In this document: positions 7,273 through 51,941 of the stretch, piece after piece
Position numbering within the stretch: the stretch's first letter is position 1
How the letters are laid out: each line of letters begins with the position of its first letter
Assembly: GCA_016845785.1 (NCBI GenBank)
Contig: JAERSH010000049.1
Location: forward strand, 40,140-104,139
From: Fidelibacterota bacterium
GTDB taxonomy: Bacteria; Fidelibacterota; Marinisomatia; Marinisomatales; TCS55
Length of the DNA: 64,000 nucleotides
Direction of reading: 5' to 3'
The notes under the pieces: generated by a model
Told to the model about the DNA's origin: nothing
The model's database searches: none
The model's input: only the letters and a program-made list of their open reading frames with translations
Translations under genes and position numbers: made by a program

Positions 7273-10112
7273 GATTTCACTAGCTTTCCATTTAATAACG
7301 GCTTGAGGAAAGACCCTGTATAAGATCCTTTTTCTTTTGATAATGCTTCTGGCGTACCCGAAAAAATAAGCTGGCCACCATCTTCGCCACCTTCCGGGCC
7401 TAAATCCACAATCCAGTCGGCGCTTTTGATTACGTCTAAATTATGTTCAATGACCACCACTGTATTACCGCGATCCACCAATCTCTGGAGAACCCCAAGC
7501 AATAAACTTACATCTTCAAAGTGTAATCCGGTGGTCGGTTCATCTAAAATATAAAAGGTCTTATCTTTAGATGCCCGAGATAACTCGGTCGCCAATTTGA
7601 TCCGCTGGGCTTCACCGCCGGACAGGGTGGTGGCTTGTTGACCCAACCGAATATAACCCAACCCCACATCATTTAATGTGACCATCTTTTTCATTACCTG
7701 CGGAATGTTTTGAAAGAAATCTGTCGCCTCTTCCACAGACAGGCTCAATACATCGGCAATATTCTTCCCTTTATATTTGATCTCCAGTGTCTCCCGGTTA
7801 TAACGGGCACCTTTGCAGACCTCGCAAGTCACATAGACATCGGGGAGAAAGTTCATTTCAATTTTAATAATGCCGTCGCCTTCACAAGATTCACAACGTC
7901 CGCCTTTAACATTGAACGAAAAACGACCCGGTTTATACCCGCGAATTTTCGATTCGGGTAGTTGGGCAAATAGGTCCCGAATAAAAGTAAATACACCCGT
8001 ATAAGTGGCCGGGTTCGATCGTGGTGTTCTGCCAATAGGCTTTTGGTCTATCTCGATTACTTTATCTAAATATTCCATTCCTTTTGATGCTTCATGTGGA
8101 AGGGGATAAGCACGCGCATTGTTTAATTCTTTCGACAAAATAGGAAATACAGTTTCGTTCACTAGCGTACTTTTACCCGATCCGCTGACCCCCGTTACAA
8201 CAACCAATTTGCCTAAAGGAAATGAAACTTCAATTTCTTTTAAATTATTGCCGCGCGCACCGGTCACAGTCAATACCTTACCATTTCCATGGCGTCGTAC
8301 GCTTGGCAAAGGAATGGCTTTCTTTCCCGATAAATACTGCCCCGTTATAGAGGATTTGGATTTTAAAATATTTTTGGGCGTACCGGCATAAACCACTTCT
8401 CCGCCGTGCTCCCCGGCGCCCGGGCCAAGGTCAATGATTTGATCAGCAGATTCCATGGTTTCCTGATCGTGTTCTACCACGACAATGGAGTTCCCCAAAT
8501 CTCGCAATTTTTTGAGCGAATTTAATAATCGATTGTTATCCCTTGGGTGGAGGCCGATAGATGGTTCATCTAAAATATATAAAACACCGACCAGTTGGCT
8601 ACCAATCTGAGTTGCCAAACGAATCCGCTGGGCTTCACCCCCCGAAAGGGTGGCCGCCGATCGATCTAATGTGAGATAATCCAAACCCACATCCATTAAA
8701 AAGCTGAGGCGTTCTTGCACTTCTTTTAAAATCTGTTCTGCGATAGCTGCATCTGTTTTTCTCAGCTTAAGGTCACTAAAAAAAGTTTTAACATTTTTTA
8801 TAGAATAAGATGATATTTCGCCCAGACTTTTTTCACCAATTGTTACTGCCCGCGATTCTTCTTTCAAGCGAGATCCGCCACATTCCGGGCAGGGTCGCAT
8901 GCTCATGAATTGCTCAATCCAATCGCGGATATGATTGGATTTTGTTTGTTTATAGCGCCGCATCAAATTGGGAATTGCCCCTTCCCATCCACCGGTATAA
9001 GTCCCACTCCATCGCTCTGAAGAATATTTCATTTTCAGTTTTTGATCGCCGGTTCCTGTCAACAACATGCTGCGAATATCCCGATCCAACTTGAACCAAG
9101 GTGTGGTAAAGTTAAAATTATAATGTTTTGATAAGCTCTTTAATATACTCCCATACCAATTGCCTCGGGGTTGTTCTCCGAGCGGAACAACAGCACCTTG
9201 AATAAGCGATTTGGTTTTATCCGGCACCACCAGTTCCGGATCAATTTCCATGTGAGAACCCAACCCGTCACAATGGGGGCAAGCGCCATAAGGTGAATTA
9301 AATGAAAACATCCGGGGTGATAATTCTTCCATGGAGACTTCGCAGTGGGGGCAGGCAAAATGTTCGCTAAATAAATGATCCGTATTGGGCAACTCATGAA
9401 CAATGGTTAAGCCGGAACCGATTTTTAAAGAAAGTTCGATAGATTCAGTTAGACGTTCTTTATAATCCTCTTCCAACACGAGGCGATCCACCACCACTTC
9501 AATGGAATGTTTTTTATTTTTTTCTAGTGTGAATTTTTCATCTACCGAATGAATCTCCCCATCAACGCGAACACGTAAAAATCCTTCTTTTCGCACCTCT
9601 TCAAAAACACCTTTGTGTTGTCCTTTTCGACCGCGGACAACCGGTGCCAAAATATAAATTCGCGCACCTTCTCCAAACTTTATAATTGTATCTACAATTT
9701 GCTGTACGGTTTGTCGCTGGATAGGCCGATCACATTTCCAGCAATGGGGTTTGCCTACATGGGCATAAAGCAACCGTAAATAATCGTGGATTTCTGTTAC
9801 AGTCCCCACGGTTGATCTTGGATTCCGAGCCGTGGCTTTTTGCTCAATGGAAATAGCCGGGGACAATCCTTCAATATAATCCATGTCCGGTTTTTCCATA
9901 AGACCCAGAAACTGGCGGGCATAAGAAGATAATGATTCTACGTACCGGCGCTGTCCTTCAGCATAGAGTGTATCAAATGCCAGAGAGGATTTTCCAGATC
10001 CGGAGAGGCCCGTAATCACCACCAATTGGTTGCGCCCAATCTCTACATCAACATTTTTTAAATTGTGCTGACGCGCACCTTTAATTATAATCTTATCTGC
10101 TGGGGACGGCAT
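7269..10112 (-). CDS. uvrA: Excinuclease ABC subunit A
   Basis: 947-aa ORF with two ABC ATPase modules ([27 protein letters not shown]; LSGGEAQRI twice) and zinc-finger CxxC pairs. It stops at TGA (7269-7271), overlapping the downstream ATG. Confidence 0.98.
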
Positions 10113-21100: not shown

Positions 21101-21748
21101 GCCAACACTTTAGAGAGTATGGTTTTTATTAATAATGGCAATGGATTTGATCCAGTCCTATTACCATTTGAAGCCCAGGTGACAACGGCTATGCACGCAG
21201 GTGTTGCAGATTTAAACGGTGATGGGCACGAAGATATTTTCTTAAGTCAAAATTTCTTTGCAGTTCAAAATGAAACGGATCGCAATGACTCTGGTCGTGG
21301 TCTTGTTGTTCTGGGAAATGGCAAAGGTGAATTCAAATCATTCCCCGGTCATGAAAGCGGCATCTTGGTTTATGGAGAACAGCGAGGCGCTGCATTTGCA
21401 GATTTTAATATGGATGGTCGAACCGATTTGGTCGTCACACAAAACGGAGCCCAGACCAAACTTTATCAAAACGATCAGGCAAAACCCGGACTTCGCGTTC
21501 GCCTTCGAGGGCCAAAAGAAAACCCATTTTCATTTGGGGCAAAAGTTAGTGTTCAGTATAATGACGGCTCATTTGGGCCTGTGAGAGAAATTCAATCGGG
21601 ATCAGGATATTGGTCCCAGAATTCGCCGGTGCAAGTGTTAGGTCTCAAAGACAATGCTACCCATCTAAAAATAAAATGGCCCGATGGAACTGAATCCACC
21701 GAGCCATTAAAAGGAAATAATTTAACCGTTACGTTTAGTGGCAGTTAA
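18101..21748 (+). CDS. CRTAC1-family lipoprotein with duplicated FG-GAP (VCBS) propeller + ASPIC/UnbV modules
   Basis: 1215 aa with lipobox (IFGC). Many FG-GAP Ca-binding loops (DVNGDGWVDIY, DVDGDRDLDL, DVDNDGDLDLY, DLDNDGDLDIV, DIDGDGDLDLF, DIDNDGDPDLI, DLNGDGHEDIF, DFNMDGRTDLV). Two UnbV-like segments (LRLRGEGNNPQAIGAKIIV...GGRYLSGDD and VRLRGPKENPFSFGAKVSV...SGSGYWSQNS). Confidence 0.85.
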   Translation: MKYKIITIIIFLFIFGCTQSDPGWEKGQIYKVAPLPVPIGSNTTGFIELNPSETGVIAANKIGQKEVMENQHLMHGSGVALGDVNGDGWVDIYIPRIRESNILYMNKGNWIFEDQTKAAGVACEGRHSTGATFADVDGDRDLDLIVTALGGPNSVFLNDGKGNFKERKLPSFLDRPGSTSSTLADVDNDGDLDLYITNYKRLAMRDSLPPPVISFDNTLMEITNNRWIVMPPFNKEYETSVRNNVLLRFEMAEVDQFYLNDGEGNFNLIDITNSHFTDENGDPIQDHLRDWGLMAQFRDINNDTHPDLYICNDFESPDRAWINNGDGTFKAISKLAIRHTSNSSMAVDFADLNKDGNTDFFVTDMMSQSHILQKTQMGTMAPTPLSIGEIDNRPQYMHNTMFLNRGDHTFSEISQFSNTQASEWSWANMFMDVDLDGHEDILITTGHMYDVQDSDALQRQTEALQRINSFDAYKRMIFEFPTLELKNIAFKNKGGLKFENVTDGWGLGNEKDISHGMATADLDNDGDLDIVINRLNQNVGLFRNNTDANRLAIRLRGEGNNPQAIGAKIIVKGYSTVQSREVIAGGRYLSGDDPLQVFAAGNDLMSVEIQWRNGTKTAVDSVKANHLYTIRQINTLPISVDGNADKPLFTDKSELLNHTHYEAPFDDFANQSLLPNRFSQLGPGVAWMDMDEDGDEDLFITGGRGDKMHHFENKDGVAFSPLSTEDSLTQDATTVLSTIDSQGQRALLTAKANFESIDNSPSLITTLSPNGKSNLESISHMAGPMSQADIDGDGDLDLFVGGRVIPNQYPKPASSILYKNENGKLIPDMKQGTSFTDIGLVSGSVFSDIDNDGDPDLILALEWGPITVFQNNNGRFKDVTSNMDLSQYKGWWNGVATGDFNNDGLLDIVATNWGVNTKYHFSPNHPRQVYFDDFDNNNVLDIVEAHYDDDFNDLVPERGFSCISNAMPFVREEKETFLNYAQSSLGDIFGNSLNTAPYLEANTLESMVFINNGNGFDPVLLPFEAQVTTAMHAGVADLNGDGHEDIFLSQNFFAVQNETDRNDSGRGLVVLGNGKGEFKSFPGHESGILVYGEQRGAAFADFNMDGRTDLVVTQNGAQTKLYQNDQAKPGLRVRLRGPKENPFSFGAKVSVQYNDGSFGPVREIQSGSGYWSQNSPVQVLGLKDNATHLKIKWPDGTESTEPLKGNNLTVTFSGS

Positions 21749-22890
21749 TCTGCCATTTTCCAGAAGGCAATACCGCCTGCCTGTTTGCCAATTTCTGCAA
21801 TAGCCACGGGTTTTAGTGTTTTTAAATCGAACACTTCAACTGCACCCGGTTCTTTACCAATCCCTTCAACGCTTACAAATGCATATCGACTGTCTGGTGA
21901 AATAGACACGCCATGTGTGACTTTTCGTGTATTTTTGAATTTGGCTATTTCTTTACCTGTGGATAAATCCCATACACCTGTTTTTGCTGCACTTTTATAG
22001 GTGATGACCAAGTATTTTCCATCATTAGAAACTTCACAGTTATAAGGACCTTTATCTGTCTTAAAGGTGCGGGTCACTTCCCATTTGTTTACATCTACCT
22101 CTACTACATTGTGTGTCCCATTATTCACCACATATAAACGATCATCTTTTGGATGGGGGTAAACCCACGTGGGTTTTTCTGCCGGCATTTTGTGGTCCAT
22201 CTTTGCCATTTTCCCCTTTTTCATACCACCCATATTCATTTTACTGTGATCCATTTTTTTCATCTTATGGCCACTGTGACCGCCCATTTTTTTCATTTTG
22301 GGCGCGGTAGATAGTGTGCGCGTTACGGCCATAGACATGGCATCAATTTCATAAAGCGTTCCGGACATCATGGCCACAGAGTAATGTTTTAATCCATTAT
22401 TCAGTAAGCGTGAACCGTGAGGCATGATACCTGTCTCAACCCGATCCACCTCAATCATTTCATCAGGATCGACAATAGATACGGTGCTGGGCTCGCTATG
22501 ACTACCATGAAGATTAAAATTCACGATATAGAGCAACCCTGTGGCATTGGAGATCCCCATGGTGGCGGGGAATAATCCCAATTCCACCCTGTCCACCATT
22601 TCATCAGAACCGGTTTTGTATTTATACAGATGACCGTAGGGCATCCCATGGGCCATGGATAAATACCAATATTCCCCATCCGGCGATACAGATAGACCAT
22701 GTGGCCCTTCAATCTCCAATGGCCAAACACCCACCGGAATGCGTTTTTCTACATGGGCTGTTTTGCCATCAAATCGTATGAGTGCAACTTCATCTTCAGA
22801 TTCTGCTGCTACGTAGAAATAGTAATCTTTTGCAAATAATCCGCTGATGCCAATCATCGTGACCAGCATTAGATATATGATTCGTTTCAT
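21745..22890 (-). CDS. Secreted YVTN/YncE-like beta-propeller protein with Met/His-rich insert
   Basis: 381 aa with a signal peptide. Repeated GPHGLSVSPDG / THGVSISPDSRY / YNCEVSNDGKY beta-propeller blades. The internal segment KMKKMGGHSGHKMKKMDHSKMNMGGMKKGKMAKMDHKM spans aa ~198-236. Confidence 0.65.
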   Translation of the reverse strand: MKRIIYLMLVTMIGISGLFAKDYYFYVAAESEDEVALIRFDGKTAHVEKRIPVGVWPLEIEGPHGLSVSPDGEYWYLSMAHGMPYGHLYKYKTGSDEMVDRVELGLFPATMGISNATGLLYIVNFNLHGSHSEPSTVSIVDPDEMIEVDRVETGIMPHGSRLLNNGLKHYSVAMMSGTLYEIDAMSMAVTRTLSTAPKMKKMGGHSGHKMKKMDHSKMNMGGMKKGKMAKMDHKMPAEKPTWVYPHPKDDRLYVVNNGTHNVVEVDVNKWEVTRTFKTDKGPYNCEVSNDGKYLVITYKSAAKTGVWDLSTGKEIAKFKNTRKVTHGVSISPDSRYAFVSVEGIGKEPGAVEVFDLKTLKPVAIAEIGKQAGGIAFWKMAD

Positions 22891-22898
22891 TGTTTCCC

Positions 22899-24941
22899 CT
22901 AGTTTGTACCCATGGGCGTATCATCATCTAATTTGATGGCCCATAGTCCATTATTCATATCTGAAAAATAGATTAACCCTTTGTAAGGCATGGTGCCCCA
23001 CACGTTTGGGCGATTCGCCATGAAGCCATCAGGGTCACCGGACATAAAAAATGCAATTTCACGCCCTTGGGCATAGATGTCTCCCATAAGTTCACCGGAA
23101 ATATCCACGATGCGAAGACCGCCCTGATAATAGGATGCCAATAGAGTGTCTCCATGAACCCAATGATTGTGTGAGCCCGCTTCAGGCACTTGATACACGG
23201 CTGTTTCTTTCGGATTTTTTGGATCGGTAAAATCCAAGAAATGGAATCCGCCCGCCATACCAAATTGGTTCCCCCATTCATCTCCAGCGATGATATAAAA
23301 CTTATCCGTGGATTGGCTAATAAATGGGAACGCTGCATGGTTATGTCCATTGGGATCGGCCATGCCACCCAGCTTCACCGGGTTGCCGGGGCTACCTTGA
23401 CCTGCCATGGCAAGAAAAGGATTAAACTGAAGCTTTGATCGATTTGCTTCATTGAACTTTACACCGCCTACATCTACAACGTGAACTCCATCTGCCCAGT
23501 TCGATGAATAGGCCAATCCATCTTTCACCCAAACATCGTGCACGCCATGTCCCGGAGTGCTTAACTCATATCGACCCACCCGAAATGGATTGGATGGATC
23601 TTCAATATTAATAATATCATATTTCCGGCCATTATTTACTGCATACACATGATTCTCATAAATGAAAACATTGTGCACACCACCGGTCATATCATCATTG
23701 AATTCATATGTAATTTTTACATCATATGGGTCTTCAATGTCCAGAATTACAAATCCGTTTTTACGGTTGGATGCCCCTTCTCTGGTGATGACGGCTACAC
23801 GACCATCCTCTGATACTTTCACATCATTAACGGTACGGGCATCAACGGTAACTGTATCAATAATATGCATTTTTGAGGGGTCAGTCACATCCCAAAAGTA
23901 GGCTTCGCCATTTGCGCCCCAAGTTCCCGTAGCGGCAAAATCTTTACCAACATGCTTTCCAATCCCGGGCCAGACCCAAAGGTCAGACGTATTGACATCT
24001 TTCACGGTGCCATGGCCCACAACAGTAATTTTTCTGCCCACATTTCTAGGTACAACCTTTACTGTTTTTCGGGCCGAATAACCGCCTGACTGGGCCATCA
24101 CTGTAAATATCCCCGGAGTTTCCGCAACAAATTTACCTTCTTGGTTAACCAGCGCAGATGCAGGGAGACCAATACCATATTCAGCTTTTCCGGTATAAGA
24201 AAAAACCACGGGCACATCTTCCACGGCGCGACCAGATCGGTTCATGGCTTGAGCAGAAAGGGTGAGTACATCTCCGGTGCGAATTTCATCCTTGTCGGCT
24301 GAAAGGTTCATTTTTCTCACCGGATTTTTTAATGCTTTAATATTAATTGACTCACTGATGCCTTCTACAGATGCAGTGAGCGTAGCTTTGCCGGGTTTTT
24401 TCACCGAAAGATTGCCAAAGCTATCAAAAGTGGCCACATCATTATTGCTGGAAGTAAGAGATACTTTTTCATCCCGTTTCAGTTCGGCTTGGTCAAAAAC
24501 CTCTGTATTGTATTTAACAGATGTGCCTACATATACCTTAATCACGGGATCAACAAAAGCCACCCGATCTAGAGGCGGTGCCGGAACATGAACCGGAATT
24601 TTACCCATAACACGGTCTGATCGTTTTTTCGCAATACTGCGAACAGCCAAACTTAGATTCCCAGGTTTATGTGCTTTTATTGTCACCGTTGCCACGCCTG
24701 TAGAATCACTCATCCTTGGGCTGGATTCTAAAGAACGCCGCGGGCGTCCATATACGTAGAATGGATTGTTTGATAATTTTCCATCTCCATCTACGAGCTT
24801 TATGGTTACAGATCCGGTTTCACCAATATGCAGTGAAAGAGAATCGGGTTCAAATACAAACTGTAGTTTCTTTTCTTCTTCAGCGTCCTGCCCCAGTGAA
24901 AAGCTTAATGTTGTCAGTACGATAGCAATTAGTTTTTTCAT
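22899..24941 (-). CDS. Secreted Big_2 (Ig-like) + LVIVD-repeat beta-propeller protein, paralogue A
   Basis: 680 aa with a signal peptide ending ...SLG|Q. Ig-like Big_2-type segments (KKPGKATLTASVEGISESINIKAL) and a C-terminal propeller with LVIVD-type strands (GLRIVDISGEL, GVHVVDVGG, GFVILDIEDP). Confidence 0.75.
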   Translation of the reverse strand: MKKLIAIVLTTLSFSLGQDAEEEKKLQFVFEPDSLSLHIGETGSVTIKLVDGDGKLSNNPFYVYGRPRRSLESSPRMSDSTGVATVTIKAHKPGNLSLAVRSIAKKRSDRVMGKIPVHVPAPPLDRVAFVDPVIKVYVGTSVKYNTEVFDQAELKRDEKVSLTSSNNDVATFDSFGNLSVKKPGKATLTASVEGISESINIKALKNPVRKMNLSADKDEIRTGDVLTLSAQAMNRSGRAVEDVPVVFSYTGKAEYGIGLPASALVNQEGKFVAETPGIFTVMAQSGGYSARKTVKVVPRNVGRKITVVGHGTVKDVNTSDLWVWPGIGKHVGKDFAATGTWGANGEAYFWDVTDPSKMHIIDTVTVDARTVNDVKVSEDGRVAVITREGASNRKNGFVILDIEDPYDVKITYEFNDDMTGGVHNVFIYENHVYAVNNGRKYDIINIEDPSNPFRVGRYELSTPGHGVHDVWVKDGLAYSSNWADGVHVVDVGGVKFNEANRSKLQFNPFLAMAGQGSPGNPVKLGGMADPNGHNHAAFPFISQSTDKFYIIAGDEWGNQFGMAGGFHFLDFTDPKNPKETAVYQVPEAGSHNHWVHGDTLLASYYQGGLRIVDISGELMGDIYAQGREIAFFMSGDPDGFMANRPNVWGTMPYKGLIYFSDMNNGLWAIKLDDDTPMGTN

Positions 24942-24956
24942 ATTATCCTCCGATGC

Positions 24957-27035
24957 TTATGGTGCATCTGATCCTTTTTCTTTGTCTTCCAATTTGATGC
25001 AGTATAGTCCTGAATTCATGTCTGCAAAGAAAATGTAATCTTTGTATGGCTGCGCGCCCCAGACCATGGGTGCATTCGCAATTTTCCCGTCTTTATGGGC
25101 CGATTGATATACTGCAATTTCTCTGCCTTGCTTATAGATATCTCCAAGCAGTTCACCTGAAATATCTACCACACGGAGACCGCCTTGATAGTTCCCCGCC
25201 AGCAACATATCCCCATATATCCATAAGTTATGTGATCCTGCTTCAGGCACTTGATACAGGGCATCTTCTCTTGGATTGTCTGGATCGGTGAAATTCAAAA
25301 AGTGATATCCGCCACGCGGGTTGGATGGCTCACCACGCGTGGCCCGAACGCCCCATGGAAAAATTTCATCTCCACCCACAATATAAAACTGGCCAGTAGA
25401 TTGGCTCACATATGGAAACGCCGCATGGTTTCTGCCGGTGGGATCACCCATTTCAGCCAACTTGACCGGATTGGATGGACTACCCTGACCTGCTTTTGCC
25501 AAGAGTGGATTAAACTGTGATTTTGATCGATCCGTTTCTTGAAGCTTTTTTGCACCAATATCCACAGCGACAACACCGTCACCCCAATTCGATGAATAGG
25601 CAATGCCATCTTCGATCCAAACATCATGGATGCTATGCCCCGGTGTATCCAACTCAAACACACCCACACGAAATGGGTTGGATGGATCATCAATATTAAT
25701 AATATCATATTTTCGTCCATTATTCACCGCATATACATGGTTGTCATAAATGAACACATTGTGAACGCCACCGGTCATATCATCATTGTATTCATACGTA
25801 ATATCCACATTGTAGGGGTCCGTTACATTCAGCACAACAAATCCATTTTTGCGATTGGAGGCCCCTTCTCTTGTAATAACACCTACGCGCCCATCTTCAG
25901 AAATTTTAACATCATTTACGGTACGCGCATCCACCGTAACTGTATCAATAATGATCATACTGTCTGGATTGGTTACGTCCCAAAAATAAGCTTCTCCATT
26001 GGAGCCCCAAGTGCCGGTGACTGCAAAATCTTTTCCCTCATGTTGATCAACGCCTGGCCACACCCAAAGATCGCTGGTAAGGACTTCGGATATCAATCCG
26101 TGGCCAACAAGAGATACTTTTCTTTTTACATCCCGTTCCACAACTTTAACTGTTTTTTGTGCGGAGTGGCCTCCTGAAGAGGCAGTCAAAGTATACAGTC
26201 CTGCCGTCTCGGCTACGAATCGACCGTCATCTGTAACTAGACCCGAAGCGGGTAAACCAAATGTACCGTAGTCTGATTGACCAATATAAGTATAGGTAAT
26301 GGGCGCATCATCTACAGAACGACCACCCCTGTTTAATGCCTTTGCATTGAGATGCAATACATCACCTGTGCGAATTTCTTCTGTATCAATATCTAAGGTG
26401 ACGCCCCTTACTGGATTTTTGACGACACGAATATCAAAGGATTCCGTCACATCATCTGCCGTGGCAGAGATGGTTGTTTTTCCTTTTTTAAATGTTTCTA
26501 GATTGCCAAATATATCAAAATCAGCAACCTTTGGATTGCTCGAAATTAATTGGACATCCACTTCCGATCTATTCAAGCCTGCCTCATCTGTCACATCTAC
26601 TGATAATGGTGTTGCCGTCCCCACATAGAGTTTAGAGGGTGTTTGATTAAAAGTCACTTGGTCGATAGGCGGATAAGGAACATTCACAACCAACTTATCC
26701 CGAATGCGGTCGTCTCTCTTCACCGTAATTGTCTGTGTCCGTAATATAAGTCTACCGGGTTTGTGGGCTTTTAATGTAACGGTTGCAACGCCCGTTGAGT
26801 CGCTTATTCGGGGAGAGACAGATAAAGATTTTCTCGCTCCAAATACATAAAATGGATTTTGGGCTAAATTCCCCGATTCATCCAATAGTCGGATGGTTAT
26901 TTCTTTAGTTTCCCCCACATGGATTTCGAGTGAATCCACATCAAATTCAAAATGAAACTTATCTTTTTGATCTTCTTGGCCAATTACCATTGCAAACAGC
27001 AACAGGGGCGCCAAGAGTCGGCGCATTGCATTCAT
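24957..27035 (-). CDS. Secreted Big_2 (Ig-like) + LVIVD-repeat beta-propeller protein, paralogue B
   Basis: 692 aa, collinear with paralogue A and sharing long identical runs (DDMTGGVHNVFIY, HVYAVNNGRKYDIINI, TVTVDARTVNDVK, ITREGASNRKNGFV, YQVPEAGSHN, GGLRVVDISGEL). Confidence 0.75.
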   Translation of the reverse strand: MNAMRRLLAPLLLFAMVIGQEDQKDKFHFEFDVDSLEIHVGETKEITIRLLDESGNLAQNPFYVFGARKSLSVSPRISDSTGVATVTLKAHKPGRLILRTQTITVKRDDRIRDKLVVNVPYPPIDQVTFNQTPSKLYVGTATPLSVDVTDEAGLNRSEVDVQLISSNPKVADFDIFGNLETFKKGKTTISATADDVTESFDIRVVKNPVRGVTLDIDTEEIRTGDVLHLNAKALNRGGRSVDDAPITYTYIGQSDYGTFGLPASGLVTDDGRFVAETAGLYTLTASSGGHSAQKTVKVVERDVKRKVSLVGHGLISEVLTSDLWVWPGVDQHEGKDFAVTGTWGSNGEAYFWDVTNPDSMIIIDTVTVDARTVNDVKISEDGRVGVITREGASNRKNGFVVLNVTDPYNVDITYEYNDDMTGGVHNVFIYDNHVYAVNNGRKYDIINIDDPSNPFRVGVFELDTPGHSIHDVWIEDGIAYSSNWGDGVVAVDIGAKKLQETDRSKSQFNPLLAKAGQGSPSNPVKLAEMGDPTGRNHAAFPYVSQSTGQFYIVGGDEIFPWGVRATRGEPSNPRGGYHFLNFTDPDNPREDALYQVPEAGSHNLWIYGDMLLAGNYQGGLRVVDISGELLGDIYKQGREIAVYQSAHKDGKIANAPMVWGAQPYKDYIFFADMNSGLYCIKLEDKEKGSDAP

Positions 27036-27138
27036 AAGTAATTCCTCCTCTAATTCATACTTTGTAAAAATGCTGGGGAATATACAACCAAAATTGATTT
27101 TAAATCTTAAGATTAAAGAATTTTATATAAAAAATAGA

Positions 27139-29346
27139 TTAAGGTTGTTGTATAAATCGGGCGAGCTCGTTTTTCATTATCGCTCCAATCTCATGGTTTG
27201 GGTTAAGAGCAAGTCCCCGATTTAAAATGATTGCCGCTTCTTTCAGTTGTTGTTGTCTTATTTTAACACCCGCAAGGTAAATGTATCCCTCCGTCAATGC
27301 AGGGTCCAATTCTACCGCTTTGGCCAAATGATTGGCTGCCAACATATCTTTTTTTAATTGAAACAATAGATGACCTATACCTAAGTGGGCTGTAGGATTA
27401 AAGGTGTTAATCTCTAATGATCGCATATAGGCTTCGATGGCAATATCCCGTTGCCCATTTCTGCTTTGAGCATATCCAAGTCCGGCCCACCCTTGCCAAT
27501 CCATAGGATTTGATTGCACAATTTCACCATAGGTTTTAACGGCCTTATCCATATCATCTACTGATAGGTATGCCTCGGCTAACCCCAGTTTTGCTCGGAT
27601 ATTATTGGGCCAAATCTTTACAGATTTTTGGTAATGATGGATGCCGGGTATTGCCATGCCACCTCGGATTAACTGTTCAGCTCTATATGCGAGCGCCGTA
27701 CTCCATCGTGTACGAATTTTGCTCTGATCTCTACCCGCATTCACCAACGATTGAATTGTCAATAGGCCAATTGTTTCATCATAGTCAATAAGTAGGTCCA
27801 AATAGGCCAATGCAACACCACGGATATCCAAATCTTTATTTTCAGACAAATGCTTTAGTTTGACAATCAACGCTTCAGATGGGTTGGATGCCCCTTCTGA
27901 CATGAATGCTTTGGCTAACCCTGCAAATACTTGCGGTGCCGGATCTTTATTAGAACCGATTAACGATAAAATACCTTCTTGTGTCATGTTGCCTTTTTCA
28001 TAATGAAAAAGAGCCGTTTCTAAATTATGAAGAGGCTTAAGATCACCGTACCATATTTCTACTTGATCTACAATTGATTGAGTGGACATATCCACATGGC
28101 ATTGCTGACAGGCATTCTTTAATCCCAATTGTTTATCCAATCCAGGCCTTGGTATAGAAATGGTGTGATCTGCGCGGGCAAACTTAAGCACATTTCCAAC
28201 CGCTTGATGTTGCTGGAAAGGCATATGGCATGATGTACACTGGCTTCCTTTTGATTCCGGTTTATGAAATGTATGGGCGGTTATATTTTCATTTTTTGAC
28301 ATATGGCAAGATGTGCATTGACCATTATCAAATCGACCTTTAAGTGGATTGCGGTTTACATCCTGATATCCATTTGAATGGGGATTGTGGCAATCCACAC
28401 ACGTCATGGACCCATTAAGATAACAATCACTAAAGACGTGGTTTTGCTGATAACCAAATGCTCTAACTCTGCCATCCGGAAAGTAGGGGTTGCCCCCCAA
28501 CATGGCAAATTTCGTACTGAAATACGATTCAAAATCCATCCCAGGGAGGTAGCCAGGACGCAGCATATCTTTTAGTGCGTGGCACTGGGCGCAGACATTA
28601 ACTGATGCTTCTTTCGTATTGGTTTTTAAAGATTGAATACCAGTATATCCCTTAATGATATTTTCGCCATAATCCATTAATGAAACATGGGTTTCCCCGG
28701 GACCATGACAGGATTCACAATTAATGGACAAATCTGTAAAGTGGGTTTCATATTTGCCTTTGGCAGGTTGAAATTCGGTGATGAGTTGACTACCGTGACA
28801 TTGCTGACAGTTCTTTTTTTCAGTAAGAAGGCCTAAAGATCGACTGGGCGGCCACTCAGAAAATTGTCTAAGAGATATAGATTCACTTGCCGGCAGCCAG
28901 CCAGAAAGATCATTGGTTTCAAAGAACCAGGTTTGCTTTCCCGGGTGATAATCAAAAGGCAGTAACCGCATGGTGCCATCAGGGAATAGACCGAAATATG
29001 TTTGCGTACCTCCCCCATATAAATGGCCACCACCAACCACGCCAATTACTTCATATTTAACTTCTTTGAATCCCGTTTCTTTGGCGCGAAAAAAATAGCG
29101 ACCATCCTTTTTATATGGAATAAACCACCCATTTTTAACCGTGATCTTTTTCCCATCAAATGGAGCCAAAACTCTTTTTTCATCTGGGAAGCCGCCAGCC
29201 TTAGCATGGGTAGAATTCTGCCAAGTACTAAATTGATCCGGATGACATGTGGCACAAGCGTCTGAACCGACAAATTGATTAGATTGACCAAATAAACATG
29301 ACCACCCTAAGGCAAGGATGCTTATACGCCATCGAATACAGTTCAT
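27139..29346 (-). CDS. Secreted octahaem c-type cytochrome with C-terminal TPR domain
   Basis: 735 aa with a signal peptide. Eight CxxCH motifs (CATCH, CQQCH, CESCH, CAQCH, CVDCH, CTSCH, CTSCH, CQQCH) in the first ~430 aa. TPR-like repeats in the last ~200 aa (AEAYLSVDDMDKAVKTYGEIVQSNP..., AIEAYMRSLEINTFNP..., LAKAVELDP...). Confidence 0.85.
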   Translation of the reverse strand: MNCIRWRISILALGWSCLFGQSNQFVGSDACATCHPDQFSTWQNSTHAKAGGFPDEKRVLAPFDGKKITVKNGWFIPYKKDGRYFFRAKETGFKEVKYEVIGVVGGGHLYGGGTQTYFGLFPDGTMRLLPFDYHPGKQTWFFETNDLSGWLPASESISLRQFSEWPPSRSLGLLTEKKNCQQCHGSQLITEFQPAKGKYETHFTDLSINCESCHGPGETHVSLMDYGENIIKGYTGIQSLKTNTKEASVNVCAQCHALKDMLRPGYLPGMDFESYFSTKFAMLGGNPYFPDGRVRAFGYQQNHVFSDCYLNGSMTCVDCHNPHSNGYQDVNRNPLKGRFDNGQCTSCHMSKNENITAHTFHKPESKGSQCTSCHMPFQQHQAVGNVLKFARADHTISIPRPGLDKQLGLKNACQQCHVDMSTQSIVDQVEIWYGDLKPLHNLETALFHYEKGNMTQEGILSLIGSNKDPAPQVFAGLAKAFMSEGASNPSEALIVKLKHLSENKDLDIRGVALAYLDLLIDYDETIGLLTIQSLVNAGRDQSKIRTRWSTALAYRAEQLIRGGMAIPGIHHYQKSVKIWPNNIRAKLGLAEAYLSVDDMDKAVKTYGEIVQSNPMDWQGWAGLGYAQSRNGQRDIAIEAYMRSLEINTFNPTAHLGIGHLLFQLKKDMLAANHLAKAVELDPALTEGYIYLAGVKIRQQQLKEAAIILNRGLALNPNHEIGAIMKNELARFIQQP

Positions 29347-29352
29347 TATAAT

Positions 29353-30972
29353 TTAATTGTTTGACCAGTCCGGCGGATCACATTCACAAAATGTGCGAAT
29401 CTGATTTACATAGTTTACAATTTCTTCTCGACTGAGTTTTTCGCCCCACCCGGGCATAAAATGACTTTTATTCATAATCCGCCCTCCAACATAAATGGTG
29501 TCAAATAATGTATCATCTGCCCGTTCACCCATCAATTTTTTATCGGTTAAATCACCGGGCTTTGTGGGTAAAAATTTCGCATTGAACCCATTGCCACTTC
29601 CATTGAATCCGTGACATGCTGCACAGTTTTCAATATATTTATTTTTCGTTGAATAAGGTCGATTTTCTAAAAGATTTAGATATTGAATATTTCCATTGGA
29701 TGTCCGTTGTGCTAAATAAGACTGTAAAAGGGGTAATATTGTTGGGTCCATTTTTGTTTTTGGCATAATACTTTCCGGCATTACCATATGGGGCATTTCG
29801 ATCGCCATTTTTATAAACCCATCTGTTAAACGTTTCCCCACATTACTTAAGCTTGGGCCAATCTTTCCTCCTTGCCCATTTAATTCATGACAGCCAAGGC
29901 AGGGGAGAAAATCGTTTAGCAATCGCTCAACCTTGTTGGATTGAAAATCATATATGTCCGGTAGTTTAGTCTTTGACACTGCACCCCCCATCCAATTGGA
30001 CAATATTTCAATTTCAGCATCTGTTAAATGATAATTGGGCATCCTACTCCCCGTCCCTGGGAAAAACCCGTTGGGTCTAATGGGTGGAGTTTCTTTTAAA
30101 TATTGAGTAAGCCATGCAGAGGGTGTCTTCATCCGTTGATGAGTTAGGTTGGGGGCATTGTGTGTGTCAAACCAATTATCTTCGCCACTCATGCTGTGAC
30201 AGGCCTGACAATTTTGGGATAGAAATATGTCTCGACCTATAGTTGCTGATGCACCGGGATTTGCTTTTTTTGCCTGTTTAAGATTACTAGAAAGGGATTC
30301 ATTTTTCGATTCTGCAACACCTTTTAAATAACCGATCATGGTATCAATATTTTTTTTGTCTGCTTTATTGTCTTCGCTAAAAAAGCTGGGCATAGGTGAT
30401 TCTCGGGGGACGTATGCAGATGGTTTAAGAATTAAATCATAGATCCAATCTGGCTGAAGGCGAACCGCCGCATCGGTGAGATCAGTAGATTTTGCCTGGC
30501 CCAATTCATTTAATGTATGGCAGACAGTACATTGGAATTCATTATGGATCAGTGCAAGTCCTTCTGCATTTTTCTTTGCTTTTACTTTTGAAAGTGTGCG
30601 GTTCTTTGGCAGAGCCTGTCGGGTCATCAGGTATTGGGTCAAGGCCAATGCTTCTCCATCAGAAAAACCAAAATCCGGCATCCGGGAGTTGCCAATATGC
30701 TGGCGCACTTTTTGGGACGATTTTAGATAATCGAAGAGGAATGTTTCATTATACCGTACACCGGCATAGCTCAGATCAGGGGCTCTGTTATTGATTATTT
30801 CAGATTGATCTACACCACTGTGGCAATTGCCGCAGCCCAGTTCGTTGACTAGCTCATTGGGAGGTAAATTATTTTGACCCAAGGTAAAGGAAATAATAAA
30901 AAAAAGGAATATTCTTCGGAAACCATAGCATATTGAATTGCGAATTAAAATTTTGGTTCTCATATTTTTCAT
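29353..30972 (-). CDS. Secreted multidomain class-I cytochrome c (five monohaem modules)
   Basis: Five CxxCH motifs (CGNCH, CTVCH, CQACH, CLGCH, CAACH), each followed by a distal Met context (SRMPDF, SPMPSF, SRMPNY, IMPKT, FMPGWG). The track ORF starts at a TTG (31077) directly after a stop. The signal peptide MKNMRTKILIRNSICYGFRRIFLFFIISFTLG|Q argues for the ATG at 30972 (or 30963). Confidence 0.85.
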   Translation of the reverse strand: MKNMRTKILIRNSICYGFRRIFLFFIISFTLGQNNLPPNELVNELGCGNCHSGVDQSEIINNRAPDLSYAGVRYNETFLFDYLKSSQKVRQHIGNSRMPDFGFSDGEALALTQYLMTRQALPKNRTLSKVKAKKNAEGLALIHNEFQCTVCHTLNELGQAKSTDLTDAAVRLQPDWIYDLILKPSAYVPRESPMPSFFSEDNKADKKNIDTMIGYLKGVAESKNESLSSNLKQAKKANPGASATIGRDIFLSQNCQACHSMSGEDNWFDTHNAPNLTHQRMKTPSAWLTQYLKETPPIRPNGFFPGTGSRMPNYHLTDAEIEILSNWMGGAVSKTKLPDIYDFQSNKVERLLNDFLPCLGCHELNGQGGKIGPSLSNVGKRLTDGFIKMAIEMPHMVMPESIMPKTKMDPTILPLLQSYLAQRTSNGNIQYLNLLENRPYSTKNKYIENCAACHGFNGSGNGFNAKFLPTKPGDLTDKKLMGERADDTLFDTIYVGGRIMNKSHFMPGWGEKLSREEIVNYVNQIRTFCECDPPDWSNN

Positions 30973-31277
30973 ATTTCTGAAAAGGGGAATCTTTAGAGCA
31001 TGCTTTATAGTTGCTTGCCTTAAAATCGATAACCTTCTTTTGGTTTGATTCCCCAAGTTAGGGCTGTTTGCTTTCAATTATGAATTAGATTTTCCTTTAA
31101 TCTTTTCAATACAACCCATAAGAACCGGGATTGCCAAAGCTATTACCAAATAACAAGTCAATACACCGATAAAAAGCGCTGCCCATAAATCCCAGCCTTC
31201 AAAAGATTATCTGGGTTATTACAGCAAATACAATAGCTATATTGATGATAAATCTTTCTGAGCGTTACATCTATTTC

Positions 31278-42247: not shown

Positions 42248-42357
42248 TGTTATTCTGATCCCCGATAATATTCGGGGAGAAGAATCTCAAGTGTTTGGCT
42301 ATTCGTCCACATTTGCTTGAGATACTTCATCCTGATAAATCAGGCCTCAGTATGACA
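42248..42357. repeat. Multi-hairpin palindromic intergenic element, copy 2
   Basis: Termini are TGTTATTCTGA ... TCAGTATGACA. Hairpin CCCCGA(42260-42265)/TCGGGG(42272-42277). Central stem GAAGAATCTCAAG(42279-42291)/CTTGAGATACTTC(42316-42328), with 1 mismatch. Hairpin CCTGA(42331-42335)/TCAGG(42340-42344). Lies between convergent genes. Confidence 0.72.
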
Positions 42358-42418: not shown

Positions 42419-42904
42419 TTAAACCGCTTCGAATACGCCTGTTTCTTTATTTTTTTTCACCTTGTCGTAATCAAAGCAGCGGCCGTTCATGGCCACATAT
42501 ACACCATGGGGCAGGCTCTGGACAAACCCCAGTGCGCTCCCCAAATTAAACAGTCCGTCTGAACTACCAAATTTATAAGGGATCATGGCGCCGGTGAGGA
42601 CGATGGTTTTTTCTAAATTGGCGCTTGCCAAAAATTTTCCTGTCTCTGTCATGGTGTCCGTACCGTGGGTAATGATAATCTGATCTTCTTCTGCGTGTTT
42701 ACAGTTTTCTACCACAAGCTTTCGGTCGTCGTCTGTCATTTCAAGACTGTCCACCATCATGAGGGTCCGGATATTCACATCAATTCGTGATCGACCCAGC
42801 TCCAGCATTTCGCGCATATGGGTATCCTTGAAGAAGAGTTTGCCGGTGATTTCGTCGTACTCTTTGTCGAAAGTACCGCCGGTGATGAAAATGCGAATTG
42901 CCAT
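42419..42904 (-). CDS. Stand-alone asparaginase N-terminal-domain protein
   Basis: About 161 aa. Has the asparaginase/glutaminase active-site contexts FITGGTFDK and ITHGTDTM but lacks the C-terminal domain. Start is either ATG 42904 (MAIRIF) or 42916. Confidence 0.7.
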   Translation of the reverse strand: MAIRIFITGGTFDKEYDEITGKLFFKDTHMREMLELGRSRIDVNIRTLMMVDSLEMTDDDRKLVVENCKHAEEDQIIITHGTDTMTETGKFLASANLEKTIVLTGAMIPYKFGSSDGLFNLGSALGFVQSLPHGVYVAMNGRCFDYDKVKKNKETGVFEAV

Positions 42905-42930
42905 CAGTATTTCCAAATAGCGCTATACAT

Positions 42931-43050
42931 TGTCATTCTGACCCCTGACACGAAGTGTCGGGTGGAAGAATCTCAAATAGGGGCAAATAACAAATCGTAC
43001 GCTTGAGATTCTTCACTCCCCCGCATTCTACGGGCTCATTCAGAATGACA
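42931..43050. repeat. Multi-hairpin palindromic intergenic element, copy 3
   Basis: Perfect 11-bp terminal inverted repeat TGTCATTCTGA(42931-42941)/TCAGAATGACA(43040-43050). Hairpin CCCTGACA/TGTCGGG (42943-42962). Perfect 12-bp central stem GAAGAATCTCAA(42965-42976)/TTGAGATTCTTC(43003-43014). Hairpin CCCG(43020-43023)/CGGG(43031-43034). Confidence 0.78.
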
Positions 43051-43066
43051 TTAAAAGGAGATAATC

Positions 43067-43417
43067 TCATATTAATTCCATCACATTCTCCGGTGGCCGC
43101 CCCAACACCGCTTTATCGCCTCTCACCACAATAGGCCGTTCCATAATTTTCGGATAGGCAACCATGGCCTTCACCATGGCATCGTCATTATCCAAAAGGT
43201 CCCCAATATGGTTCGCTTTAAAATCAGCTTCACCTTTTCGCACAAATTCGGAAGGACGTTTGCCCAGTTTTTTTGCAAGGGAATGAAAGTCCGCCTCTGA
43301 AGGCACATCCTTCAAATATTCTATAATAGTTGGTTCAACGCCATTGTCACGCAATAGCTGCAGTGTCTGCCTGCTTTTGCCTCACCGTGGGTTGTGGTAA
43401 ATGGTGAATCCGCTCAT
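43067..43417 (-). CDS. arsC: Glutaredoxin-type arsenate reductase ArsC with in-frame TGA at the catalytic Cys codon (candidate selenocysteine protein)
   Basis: The track only lists 43067-43354 (TTG start). In the same frame upstream, the ATG at 43417 gives MSGFTIYHNPR-[TGA 43382-43384]-GKSRQTLQLLRDNGVEPTIIEYL.... This aligns with E. coli/R773 ArsC ITIYHNPAC(12)GTSRNTLEMIRNSGTEPTII. Catalytic Arg contexts are conserved (FVRKGE, MERPIVV, LGRPPE). A hairpin-forming sequence follows the TGA. Confidence 0.7.
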
Positions 43418-43542
43418 GATTCTTCTCTAAAATGGTTAAAAACTTCTGCAAAAGGTAAAATAAGTAGATACTCTCTTTTCAATGCTTTCTTAATAAATAC
43501 CATTATATTTCAATAATATACATTATTCTGTATATTACGCAT

Positions 43543-44511
43543 ATGAAACGCATGCACCGCTTTAAGACCCATTTCATATTTTTCGTTCCATTACTATACA
43601 GCTGCGACGAACCGACCAAAAATGAAAAAGACCCAAACGCCTATTCAACGGCCGGTGTCTTGTGCGATTTAAGTGTAGAAGTATATAACGATGATGAATC
43701 TGTAAAAGCCACGAGCCGGTATGCATGGTCCTGCGATGCAGACAGGCGCAACCTTTCCGGGAATGGAATCCCCGATCATGAAGTGGGCACCTTCCCCAAT
43801 GCCAATAATCCCAATACCATTCGGGCAAGTAATGTGAATAAAGCATTTACCATCCATCCTTTGGTCACATCGGATGAAGGTGTGCCGGTTGGGGGTCCGC
43901 GCGGTGCCATTGCTTATGCATTAAACAGTGTAAAGTTTGATCCGGGCACGGCAGGGCGGTGCGATGATAACGGCAACTGCAGTTTGGCTCAAGGGCAGGG
44001 ACGGTGGAACATTGAAGCGTTGGGGCACGACACATTTGACTTCGGCGATGATATGAACCACGCGCACGTCCAACCCACAGGTGAATACCATTACCACGGC
44101 ATTCCGGAATTATTTTTGGCTCAACTGGATAAAGGTGTCGCCATGACCTTGGTGGGCTGGGCTTCCGATGGATTTCCTGTCTATGCCCGCTATGGTTATG
44201 TAGATCCAGATGATGTGAATAGTGGCATCAAAATGATGAAACCCAGTTGGCAGCTTAAATCCACAGGCAATGCCGGGCGGCCGGATACATTGCGATCATT
44301 GCGGGGCGGTCCCGGCGGGAATACCAGTCTGAAAAAGCCTATTCCTTTAGGGGCCTTCACTCAAGATTTTGAATATGTGGATGGCTCCGGCGACCTGGAT
44401 CAATGTAATGGACGTACGGGCGTAACCCCGGAATTTCCCGATGGCATCTATTATTATATGGTGACGGATGCATTTCCATTTTTCTCCAGATGCCTAAAAG
44501 GGGAATTGTGA
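43543..44511 (+). CDS. YHYH-domain lipoprotein
   Basis: 322 aa with lipobox (LLYSC), the eponymous motif GEYHYHGIPE, and a second conserved block (GWASDGFPVY). Confidence 0.8.
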   Translation: MKRMHRFKTHFIFFVPLLYSCDEPTKNEKDPNAYSTAGVLCDLSVEVYNDDESVKATSRYAWSCDADRRNLSGNGIPDHEVGTFPNANNPNTIRASNVNKAFTIHPLVTSDEGVPVGGPRGAIAYALNSVKFDPGTAGRCDDNGNCSLAQGQGRWNIEALGHDTFDFGDDMNHAHVQPTGEYHYHGIPELFLAQLDKGVAMTLVGWASDGFPVYARYGYVDPDDVNSGIKMMKPSWQLKSTGNAGRPDTLRSLRGGPGGNTSLKKPIPLGAFTQDFEYVDGSGDLDQCNGRTGVTPEFPDGIYYYMVTDAFPFFSRCLKGEL

Positions 44512-50981: not shown

Positions 50982-51941
50982 TCAATATTCCTTCTTTGGT
51001 CGGACCCATAATTTGTGCAAACTGTCTTCATTCGGGTTTTCCATTGGTCGGACGATTCGAAACCCAACATGGGTTGCATCCGTATGCCACCATAAACTTT
51101 TGGGAATTTGAGGGTCTCGCTGTTTCCATTGGGGGATAGAACTTCCACGTGCTGCTGATCTTAGTCTGTCTTCACTGTCCTTAAAAGAGCCGCCGCGGAT
51201 CACCCTTGGATAAAGGGCTCGTTTCTTTTTCACCGGATTATGCACCCCCTTTTCCCGCCCAATATATGCCCCTGAGTCATAACTGTCCAATACCCATTCT
51301 GCCGCATTTCCATGCATATCATATAGGCCAAAAGGATTCGGTTTTTTCTTTTTGCTCGGATGCAGCTTCCCCTCACTGTTGCCCTTGTACCATCCGTAAT
51401 CATCTATTTTTCTCGCATTTCTGCCAAACGAATATGCCGTGGTCTCCCCGCCGCGACAAGCATATTCCCATTCTGCCTCGGATGGCAAGCGATAGTACCG
51501 TCCTGTTTTTGCCGTAAGCCACTTACAAAATTGTGATGCAGCATATTGAGTTACATTGATCATAGGCAGCCCCGGTTTGTTATAATTTACATAAGGGGGC
51601 GTTGCGCCGGATACACCATCTATATCCAATTCAATTTGTCCATTAGATTCGGTATTTATCACATCGTTGCGATTCAAAAAGAGTTCATAGACTTCCCAAC
51701 TGATTTCTACTTCGGCCATCCAAAAACCATCAACGATCACTTCATGAACCGGACCTTCGTCTTGAAGTCTTCCTTTTTCTCTTTTGGGGCTCCCCATTTG
51801 GAATGTTCCCCCTTTAATGGGAATCATTTTTATGGATAAATCTGAACCGGCTAGCGGCTCTGCGTAGGGTTCAAACTTATTGTCCTGTCCAAATCCTATC
51901 GCAGAGAAAATGAGCAAAACAATTAGAGTGATTGATCTCAT
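50982..51941 (-). CDS. Secreted formylglycine-generating-enzyme (FGE/SUMF1) fold protein
   Basis: 319 aa with a signal peptide. FGE-family blocks GGTFQMGSP, YRLPSEAEWEYACRGG, GLYDMHGNAAEWV, RGGSF. Confidence 0.85.
   Translation of the reverse strand: MRSITLIVLLIFSAIGFGQDNKFEPYAEPLAGSDLSIKMIPIKGGTFQMGSPKREKGRLQDEGPVHEVIVDGFWMAEVEISWEVYELFLNRNDVINTESNGQIELDIDGVSGATPPYVNYNKPGLPMINVTQYAASQFCKWLTAKTGRYYRLPSEAEWEYACRGGETTAYSFGRNARKIDDYGWYKGNSEGKLHPSKKKKPNPFGLYDMHGNAAEWVLDSYDSGAYIGREKGVHNPVKKKRALYPRVIRGGSFKDSEDRLRSAARGSSIPQWKQRDPQIPKSLWWHTDATHVGFRIVRPMENPNEDSLHKLWVRPKKEY

Follow-up and report, generated by a model that had tools for sequence, protein, structure and literature searches.

Does an in-frame TGA at the catalytic cysteine codon of an arsC gene mark a selenocysteine (Sec), another amino acid inserted by read-through, or a gene that is broken or wrongly assembled? 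The question is raised by the minus strand of the 64,000-nucleotide stretch of Fidelibacterota DNA analysed here (the window; G+C content 43.6%), in which an initial annotation had pointed to such a codon and to a possible stem-loop behind it. The explanation that best accounts for the evidence is a 116-residue thiol/selenol oxidoreductase of the ArsC family, belonging to the Marinimicrobia, whose nucleophile at position 12 is Sec. Taken as a whole, with the mechanistic steps proposed below included, this explanation is given a probability of about 0.9. The predicted function is that of a YfgD-like, glutaredoxin-coupled arsenate reductase.

An ArsC reading frame with TGA at codon 12

The coding sequence spans positions 43067–43417 of the minus strand and comprises 116 codons and a stop, with full-length homologues sharing the same start and end. 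Read directly from the sequence, it begins with an ATG (43417–43415) and ends with its own TGA stop (43069–43067), the frame running MSGFTIYHNPR-TGA(43384–43382)-GKSRQTLQLLRDNG... to that stop. The mechanical list of open reading frames contains only a truncated 95-aa piece (43067–43354, minus strand), as the initial annotation had remarked, and continuing the same frame upstream does reach the ATG at 43417. The TTG taken as the start of the truncated piece is the codon of Leu22, which lies within the hairpin described below, and the segment missed by ORF callers includes the eleven N-terminal codons MSGFTIYHNPR (43385–43417, minus strand). Codon 12, the in-frame TGA at 43382–43384 on the minus strand, is read here as Sec and gives the active-site motif NPR-U-GKS, or UxxS (U12-G-K-S15).

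With Cys placed at codon 12, profile searches assign the protein to the arsenate reductase model TIGR00014 (133.2 bits; cut-off, 106.05) and to PF03960 (53.4 bits; cut-off, 24). Its score of 35 bits against TIGR01617, the model for the Spx/MgsR RNA-polymerase-binding regulators, falls below the cut-off of 75.05. Residues 1–115 align without a gap on residues 1–115 of R773 ArsC (PDB 1JZW/1I9D); because the alignment is ungapped, the TGA can be equated with the position of Cys12, and Arg60, Arg94 and Arg107 with the catalytic arginines of R773 ArsC. All three arginines are kept in the window protein and are invariant across 23 homologues. The roles of Cys12 and of these arginines are presumably those established for R773 ArsC. 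The earlier identification of an ArsC with TGA at its catalytic Cys codon, and with its three catalytic Arg contexts retained, is thus borne out by the profile score and the R773 alignment.

Conservation of codon 12 and selection on its flanks

The distribution of the TGA was followed in a set of species-representative genomes (one genome per species), in which only loci with a visible codon 12 were scored. TGA occupies codon 12 in 20 of 20 close loci (L010–L030). A further five at greater distance (L035, L039, L042, L043 and L064) also have it, which makes 25 genomes in total; in the 53 remaining loci the codon is TGC or TGT. A similar division runs through the JGI/ENA metagenomes, where TGA is found in 57 of 78 evaluable loci, namely those whose identity to the window protein is 63% or more, and the other 21 are Cys forms, all at most 60% identical to it. 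Protein searches returned a group written with Trp (...NPR-W-GKSR...; about 54 clusters or more, 63–84% identical to the query), a Cys group (...NPR-C-SKSR...; 53 clusters, up to about 62% identical) and several truncated forms of 95–98 aa. The motif of the sister group is C-SKSR, its Cys being encoded by TGC or TGT. The comparison of homologues that the initial annotation had called for thus yields Sec/Cys pairs at codon 12, with TGA in the close clade and TGC or TGT in distant homologues.

Both sides of the TGA evolve as coding sequence. Over all sequence pairs, codons 2–11 show 554 synonymous and 189 non-synonymous differences, which indicates purifying selection, and the figures for codons 13–36 (1292 synonymous and 360 non-synonymous) are comparable. 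The ATG start is invariant among homologues, and residues I6, Y7, H8, N9 and P10 never vary though most of their codons do. The view that both flanks are intact and in frame therefore extends to dozens of species, across which they are conserved, and the search for signs of decay found neither further stops nor frameshifts in a TGA shared by independent genomes. At the level of sequence comparison, these patterns demonstrate that the UGA at codon 12 is translated in frame and is fixed across the lineage.

In a rough neighbour-joining tree, all Sec forms fall into one super-clade together with a few Cys forms, among them one from a Marinimicrobia single-cell genome (L037), and the Sec forms themselves make up two groups, a main one and a smaller one. 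This arrangement hints that Sec and Cys may have been interchanged more than once; as the tree carries no support values, it is taken only as a hint.

TGA as a stop codon and the Trp forms in databases

Elsewhere in the window TGA behaves as an ordinary stop. It terminates 12 of the 47 long non-overlapping ORFs, this gene included, several of them with ATGA start/stop overlaps, and ruvB (3843–3845) and uvrA (7269–7271), which had been named as examples, were checked and do end in TGA. The arsC mRNA itself carries two UGAs with different fates, one at codon 12 and one as the terminal stop, as position-specific recoding predicts. The earlier preference for local recoding over an alternative genetic code is therefore upheld.

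The Trp found at position 12 in public proteins is, on comparison with the underlying DNA, an artefact that arises on short contigs when TGA is read under code 4. In the same clusters at 90% identity, 116-aa W forms (from contigs below 2 kb) stand beside 95-aa forms, which come from long contigs, and the genes of the W forms, whose DNA reads TGA, do not yield the deposited protein under code 11. The idea that the NCBI contigs of ~1 kb carrying W forms might be the original Sargasso Sea reads was rejected, as they are later metagenome assemblies. A protein in a public collection (P0002), 99% identical to the window ArsC, is the same 95-aa truncation. Gene callers thus either cut the gene to 95 aa, with loss of the active site, or on short contigs apply code 4 and introduce a false Trp, which now stands at the catalytic position in about 54 or more public protein clusters.

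Two mutually exclusive helices downstream of the UGA

The bacterial SECIS is modelled as a stem of 4–16 bp with a loop of 3–9 nt in which the first or second nucleotide is G, a UGA-to-loop spacing of 16–37 nt and a minimum free energy (MFE) of −7.5 kcal/mol or lower (PMC13188914). The pairing described in the initial annotation (43351–43380, minus strand) is indeed the MFE fold of the window sequence, at −21.6 kcal/mol and z = −2.65, with none of 200 shuffles as stable in single-sequence folding. Its lower stem joins GCAA.AGC (43380–43373) to GCU.UUGC (43358–43351); in 49 Sec-type sequences 97.1% of the cells of this 7-bp lower stem are paired, and the pair formed by the third positions of the Ser15 and Gln20 codons covaries (UA 28, CG 17, UG 3, one mismatch). 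In the apical GCAG/CUGC stem, by comparison, two of the pairs are open in 31 and 21 of the 49 homologues, respectively. The hairpin fails the published bacterial SECIS model, since its loop in the window (ACA) contains no G and is separated from the UGA by 15 nt. Of the SECIS proposed there, the conserved lower stem stands, whereas the apical stem is not conserved and loop and spacing are off the model; the proposed element needs to be shifted by ~20 nt downstream, to 43358–43340.

The best candidate for a SECIS core is the hairpin GCUAUUG-CGUGA-CAAUGGC (43340–43358, minus strand), a conserved 7-bp stem that fits the model. Its 5-nt loop CGUGA (43351–43347) has a G at position 2, followed by U, and lies 30 nt from the UGA. 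Loop, stem and spacing all agree with the model and the energy is borderline: the hairpin alone folds at −7.4 kcal/mol in the window, next to the threshold of −7.5, with homologues ranging from −3.5 to −11.3. It is also less stable in the window than the competing upstream helix (−7.4 versus −12.7 kcal/mol). The two helices cannot coexist, because both use 43358–43351.

Among 49 distinct homologues, 99.4% of the cells of the downstream hairpin are paired, and in four of the seven base pairs both partners vary; in the RNAalifold consensus of the 49 Sec-type sequences it is the sole helix. One of the compensations couples a synonymous change at Leu22 (UUG to CUG) with an amino-acid change at residue 25 (Asn AAC to Ser AGC). 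The G–C to A–U swaps at third codon positions may in part reflect shared GC3 drift, that is, base composition. Codon choice in this segment is restricted in the Sec genes: of 49 sequences, 48 use CGT for R23, all 49 use GAC for D24 and 46 use TTG for Leu22. The Cys genes use six different codons for R23, CGT accounting for only 4 of 49, and 18 of 56 have GAT for D24. R11 serves as an internal control, as in the same Sec genes it varies freely among CGG, AGA and CGC. As read from codon usage, the fixed codons of the Sec genes show selection at the nucleotide level. The full set of seven hairpin pairs is found in 30 of 35 Sec loci, whereas of 32 Cys loci encoding the same peptide, LLRDN, only 4 have it; part of the helix nevertheless comes free with that peptide, since Cys genes encoding it average 5.6 of the seven pairs.

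A second Sec subgroup (L039, L043 and L064, with L035 assigned by eye) has, 17 nt downstream of the UGA, a hairpin of its own, GGAGC-CGUG(C/U)(A/C)-GCUCC, whose loop opens with the same CGUG despite a different encoded peptide. Taken together, these observations suggest that the hairpin at 43358–43340 is probably the SelB-binding core. A further small hairpin (43374–43360), seen in a first RNAalifold run, was rejected, as 13 of 49 sequences are unpaired at its only variable pair and it is missing from the 49-sequence consensus. An Rfam scan of 42850–43600 with E-values up to 10 gave chance-level matches only.

Selenocysteine machinery and the host phylum

Named genomes with the TGA form all belong to Candidatus Marinimicrobia, Neomarinimicrobiota or Fidelibacterota (SAR406); in the NCBI taxonomy, Neomarinimicrobiota is a synonym of the phylum Fidelibacterota of the FCB group. 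The 64-kb window holds none of selA, selB, selD or a tRNA-Sec gene: ARAGORN and Rfam found only a tRNA-Gln in it and no tRNA-Sec, and NCBIfam scans of 50 window ORFs gave no SelA, SelB or SelD. ARAGORN likewise found no tRNA-Sec in 28 related Marinimicrobia loci, and tblastn searches of the window and related loci with E. coli SelA, SelB and SelD gave only an unrelated GTPase match in a gammaproteobacterial locus. Neither the intergenic ORFs of the window nor 413 kb of Marinimicrobia sequence yielded another convincing gene with a conserved in-frame TGA. Recurring in-frame TGA candidates besides ArsC were discarded, as they look like shadow frames of conserved genes.

Three SAR406 single-cell genomes have been listed with an 'orphan SelD', no other Sec component or selenoprotein gene being detected in them (PMC5029168). 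These single-cell genomes are incomplete. A literature search joining Marinimicrobia, SAR406, Marinisomatota or Fidelibacter with selenocysteine or selenium returned this table only. If the protein is a lineage-wide selenoprotein, the SelD of SAR406 would not be an orphan and a phylum of the dark ocean would be a regular user of Sec. Fixation of Sec across many Marinimicrobia species would moreover imply a selenium dependence of an abundant mesopelagic phylum.

Genomic neighbourhood and predicted substrate

Downstream of arsC lies a short protein of 165 aa that has only the N-terminal domain of an asparaginase (42419–42916, minus strand; weak TIGR00519 and TIGR00520 matches), and the order of ArsC followed by asparaginase is repeated in related genomes. 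The other neighbours are M20 and M24 peptidases and proteins that match no family. None of the ars operon genes sought (arsR, arsB/acr3 and arsA) flanks arsC, so the assignment of arsenate as the putative substrate is drawn from family membership only. Association with ars genes is typical of the family and not required; YfgD-like members also occur outside such a setting.

A proposed decoding and catalytic mechanism

Decoding would proceed through SelB carrying Sec-tRNA(Sec), recruited by a coding-sequence hairpin downstream of the UGA, most likely the 7-bp stem with the CGUGA loop at 43358–43340. A ribosome decoding a UGA covers roughly the next dozen nucleotides. A ribosome positioned on codon 12 would accordingly melt the helix that starts 2 nt downstream, and its freed 3' strand could then enter the downstream hairpin; because the footprint covers the 5' strand of the upstream helix, that helix should already be melted when the downstream hairpin is needed. 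One might go further and picture a switch thrown by the ribosome, in which the UGA-adjacent helix holds the 5' arm of the SelB hairpin until it is melted and the CGUGA hairpin then forms, an elaboration that we regard as quite unlikely. In catalysis, the selenolate would attack arsenate, or another oxyanion or disulfide substrate, in the manner of ArsC, with Arg60, Arg94 and Arg107 keeping the substrate in place and glutathione and glutaredoxin resolving the adduct.

Alternative explanations

A pseudogene, or a sequencing or assembly error that turned TGC or TGT into TGA, would fit the presence of a single in-frame stop in the window, and one metagenome contig (L090; P0014) does carry TGC while differing by one base from a TGA-bearing contig. 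That contig also has P95H at an otherwise invariant residue, so it looks error-prone itself. Projects independent of one another recovered the identical TGA, in 25 species-representative genomes and in 57 metagenome contigs, and no additional stops or frameshifts accompany it. The conservation of TGA and ATG, together with purifying selection on both sides of the TGA, thus rules out decay and assembly error, and with them a start downstream of the TGA; we give the pseudogene or error reading practically no weight. An alternative code in which TGA stands for Trp (code 4) or Gly (code 25) draws on the many deposited proteins of the clade with W at position 12. These W forms are confined to contigs shorter than about 2 kb, long contigs giving 95-aa forms, and their genes mismatch the deposited protein under code 11. 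TGA is, besides, the stop of 12 of the 47 long ORFs in the window and of arsC, and Trp or Gly as the catalytic nucleophile would inactivate ArsC, which leaves this reading with a negligible chance of being right.

Read-through by a near-cognate or suppressor tRNA (Trp, Cys or Arg) would dispense with SelB and SECIS, the hairpins serving to slow the ribosome or to compete with release factor 2. It would suit a Sec machinery that was found neither in the 64-kb window nor in the 28 related loci, and SAR406 single-cell genomes scored for SelD without SelA or SelB (PMC5029168). The same genomes do have SelD, however, and the family is classed as a selenoprotein (PMC1088965; PMC2398784; PMC13188914). 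The UGA moreover falls exactly on the redox-active Cys, the hallmark of Sec/Cys pairs; the downstream hairpin agrees in loop, stem and spacing with a bacterial SECIS; and the strong constraint on the gene is at odds with the inactive enzyme that would result from inserting anything but Cys. Read-through of this kind is therefore very improbable. Sec decoding could also be real and depend on the hairpin at 43380–43351 rather than on that at 43358–43340. The former is the MFE fold of the window sequence and of roughly half the homologues, the 7 bp of its lower stem are nearly always paired and include the strongly covarying pair, and Gly13 prefers GGC (41 of 49), which strengthens the stem. Its apical stem and loop, however, are not conserved, and in three homologues the A14–U37 pair is broken by a change that is compensated in the 43358–43340 hairpin instead. 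From what is generally known of the ribosome footprint, its 5' strand, 2–9 nt after the UGA, would also lie in the mRNA channel. The ACA loop and the 15-nt spacing break the published loop and spacing rules (PMC13188914), and we consider it unlikely that this hairpin is the SECIS. Recruitment of SelB by the CGUGA hairpin at 43358–43340 remains the preferred reading.

Comparison with known systems

Sec-containing ArsC with UxxS has been a published family since 2005, and the candidate selenoprotein of the initial annotation is not a new one. The new selenoprotein families described from the Sargasso Sea included a Sec-containing arsenate reductase (14 sequences, UxxS), and the report figures its predicted SECIS (Zhang, Fomenko & Gladyshev, 2005; PMC1088965). 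The family is also covered as 'Arsenate reductase (ArsC) 1' (pfam03960/TIGR00014; Zhang & Gladyshev, 2008; PMC2398784), and a 2026 review lists 'Arsenate reductase, TIGR00014, UxxS' (PMC13188914). Its U-G-K-S motif and its matches to both models make the window gene a member of this family. It shares with the family the Pfam/TIGRFAM assignment and the UxxS motif, likewise comes from a marine source, has Sec where the catalytic Cys would be and shows a stem-loop shortly after the UGA; nothing essential differs.

Compared with R773 ArsC, the glutaredoxin-coupled enzyme of an E. coli plasmid (1I9D, 1JZW), the window protein has its nucleophile at the same position 12 and the same Arg60/Arg94/Arg107, but Sec replaces Cys12 and the motif is NPR-U-GKSR instead of NPA-C-GTSR. 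It is also shorter (116 versus 141 aa), and no ars operon surrounds its gene. The best matches among solved structures are the YfgD-like 3F0I (E = 7.5e-25) and 3RDW (3.7e-23), whose length class (~119 aa) and C-terminal GRPPE motif it shares. YfgD-like proteins have NP[KR]CSKSR, with Ser following the Cys, whereas the Sec forms of the main clade all have Gly after the nucleophile, which places GGN directly 3' of the UGA. The 'Arsenate reductase 2' selenoproteins (cd03032, NF041106) likewise belong to the ArsC/Spx superfamily and have Sec at an N-terminal redox site; they are, however, Spx-like with UxxC, whereas the window protein has UxxS and reaches only 35 bits of the 75 required by the Spx/MgsR model.

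As to the RNA, the window hairpin resembles the E. coli fdhF and fdnG SECIS elements and the consensus model in being located within the coding region, 3' of the UGA, and in having a small apical loop. Consistent with the bacterial consensus (PMC13188914), it has a G and then a U near the 5' side of the loop and a spacing within 16–37 nt, the 30 nt found here being near the long end of the range. It differs from the fdhF and fdnG elements in an unrelated sequence, in its CGUGA loop and in the helix abutting the UGA that competes with it.

An ArsC selenoprotein family, and the idea that marine bacteria carry out an arsenate or redox reaction dependent on selenium, have thus been on record for twenty years, and the present gene brings no new principle. 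To the family literature (PMC1088965; PMC2398784; PMC13188914) the analysis makes modest additions: a Marinimicrobia clade, a conserved CGUGA hairpin 30 nt after the UGA with a competing helix, a Sec codon fixed across many species of the phylum, and the Trp-mistranslated or truncated copies under which the protein is publicly deposited.

Recoding and misannotation of arsC

The termination codon of arsC (43067-43069) is TGA, like the in-frame TGA at 43382-43384; a single mRNA therefore carries one UGA that is recoded (codon 12) and another that terminates translation (codon 117). More than 54 ArsC clusters of the public protein collection (homologous proteins P0001 and P0003-P0062; related loci L091-L094) show Trp at the catalytic position. 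For Sec-type arsC on contigs shorter than ~2 kb, gene callers pick code 4, in which TGA is read as Trp, and on long contigs they cut the same genes to 95 aa. Both the Trp and the 95-aa forms are a systematic annotation artefact affecting short selenoprotein genes.

One metagenome contig carries TGC (Cys) at codon 12 (locus L090, 190-540; protein P0014). Compared over 72 nt around codon 12 with the TGA-bearing contig L092, it differs at the codon-12 base alone. In P0014, Pro95, which is invariant elsewhere, is replaced by His. Either L090 is error-prone or it represents a rare Sec-to-Cys variant.

Genomic surroundings

On the same minus strand, arsC is followed by a gene (42419-42916) whose product comprises an asparaginase N-terminal-like domain and nothing more. 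This protein is 161-165 aa long in the window and in the related loci L001, L002, L006, L090 and L091; the order arsC then asparaginase-like gene, on the same strand, is conserved across many Marinimicrobia genomes.

A palindromic intergenic element of ~110-120 nt is present in two copies in the window, one directly 3' of the arsC stop (42932-43049) and the other flanked by the genes for the M20 peptidase and the asparaginase-like protein (42249-42356). Both share the termini TTGTCATTCTGA...TCAGAATGACAA and the inner pairing GAAGAATCTCAAG...CTTGAGATTCTTC, and folding of the arsC-proximal copy (42932-43049) gives a closed structure of three hairpins (-48.7 kcal/mol, z = -3.63). The element matches no Rfam family; it resembles a repeat of the REP or MITE type or, alternatively, a terminator complex.

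Two further minus-strand genes of the window have weak selenium-related matches. One encodes a 735-aa protein (27139-29346) that matches multihaem cytochromes and TPRs; its residues 21-50 resemble a 30-position stretch of the NCBIfam model NF041198, 'UshA-like (seleno)protein', at 32 bits, far below the cut-off of 275. Its gene lies within a block (21745-31077) of c-type cytochrome, SoxX-like and choice-of-anchor B genes. The second, a formylglycine-generating-enzyme-like or sulfatase-modifying-like protein (50982-51941), scores weakly against EgtB and, at 40.6 bits (cut-off 420), against the selenoneine synthase SenA, a resemblance that almost certainly reflects shared domain similarity only.

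A second group of Sec-type ArsC

Marinimicrobia also contain a more distant Sec-type ArsC group (loci L039, L043, L064 and L035; 50-56% identical). The hairpin GGAGC-CGUGCA-GCUCC lies 17 nt after the UGA in L039 (~10015-10032), L043 and L064, and recurs with a bulge in L035. Compared with the main Sec-type clade of Marinimicrobia, this hairpin is nearer to the UGA and the peptide encoded there differs, whereas the loop start, CGUG, is common to both groups.
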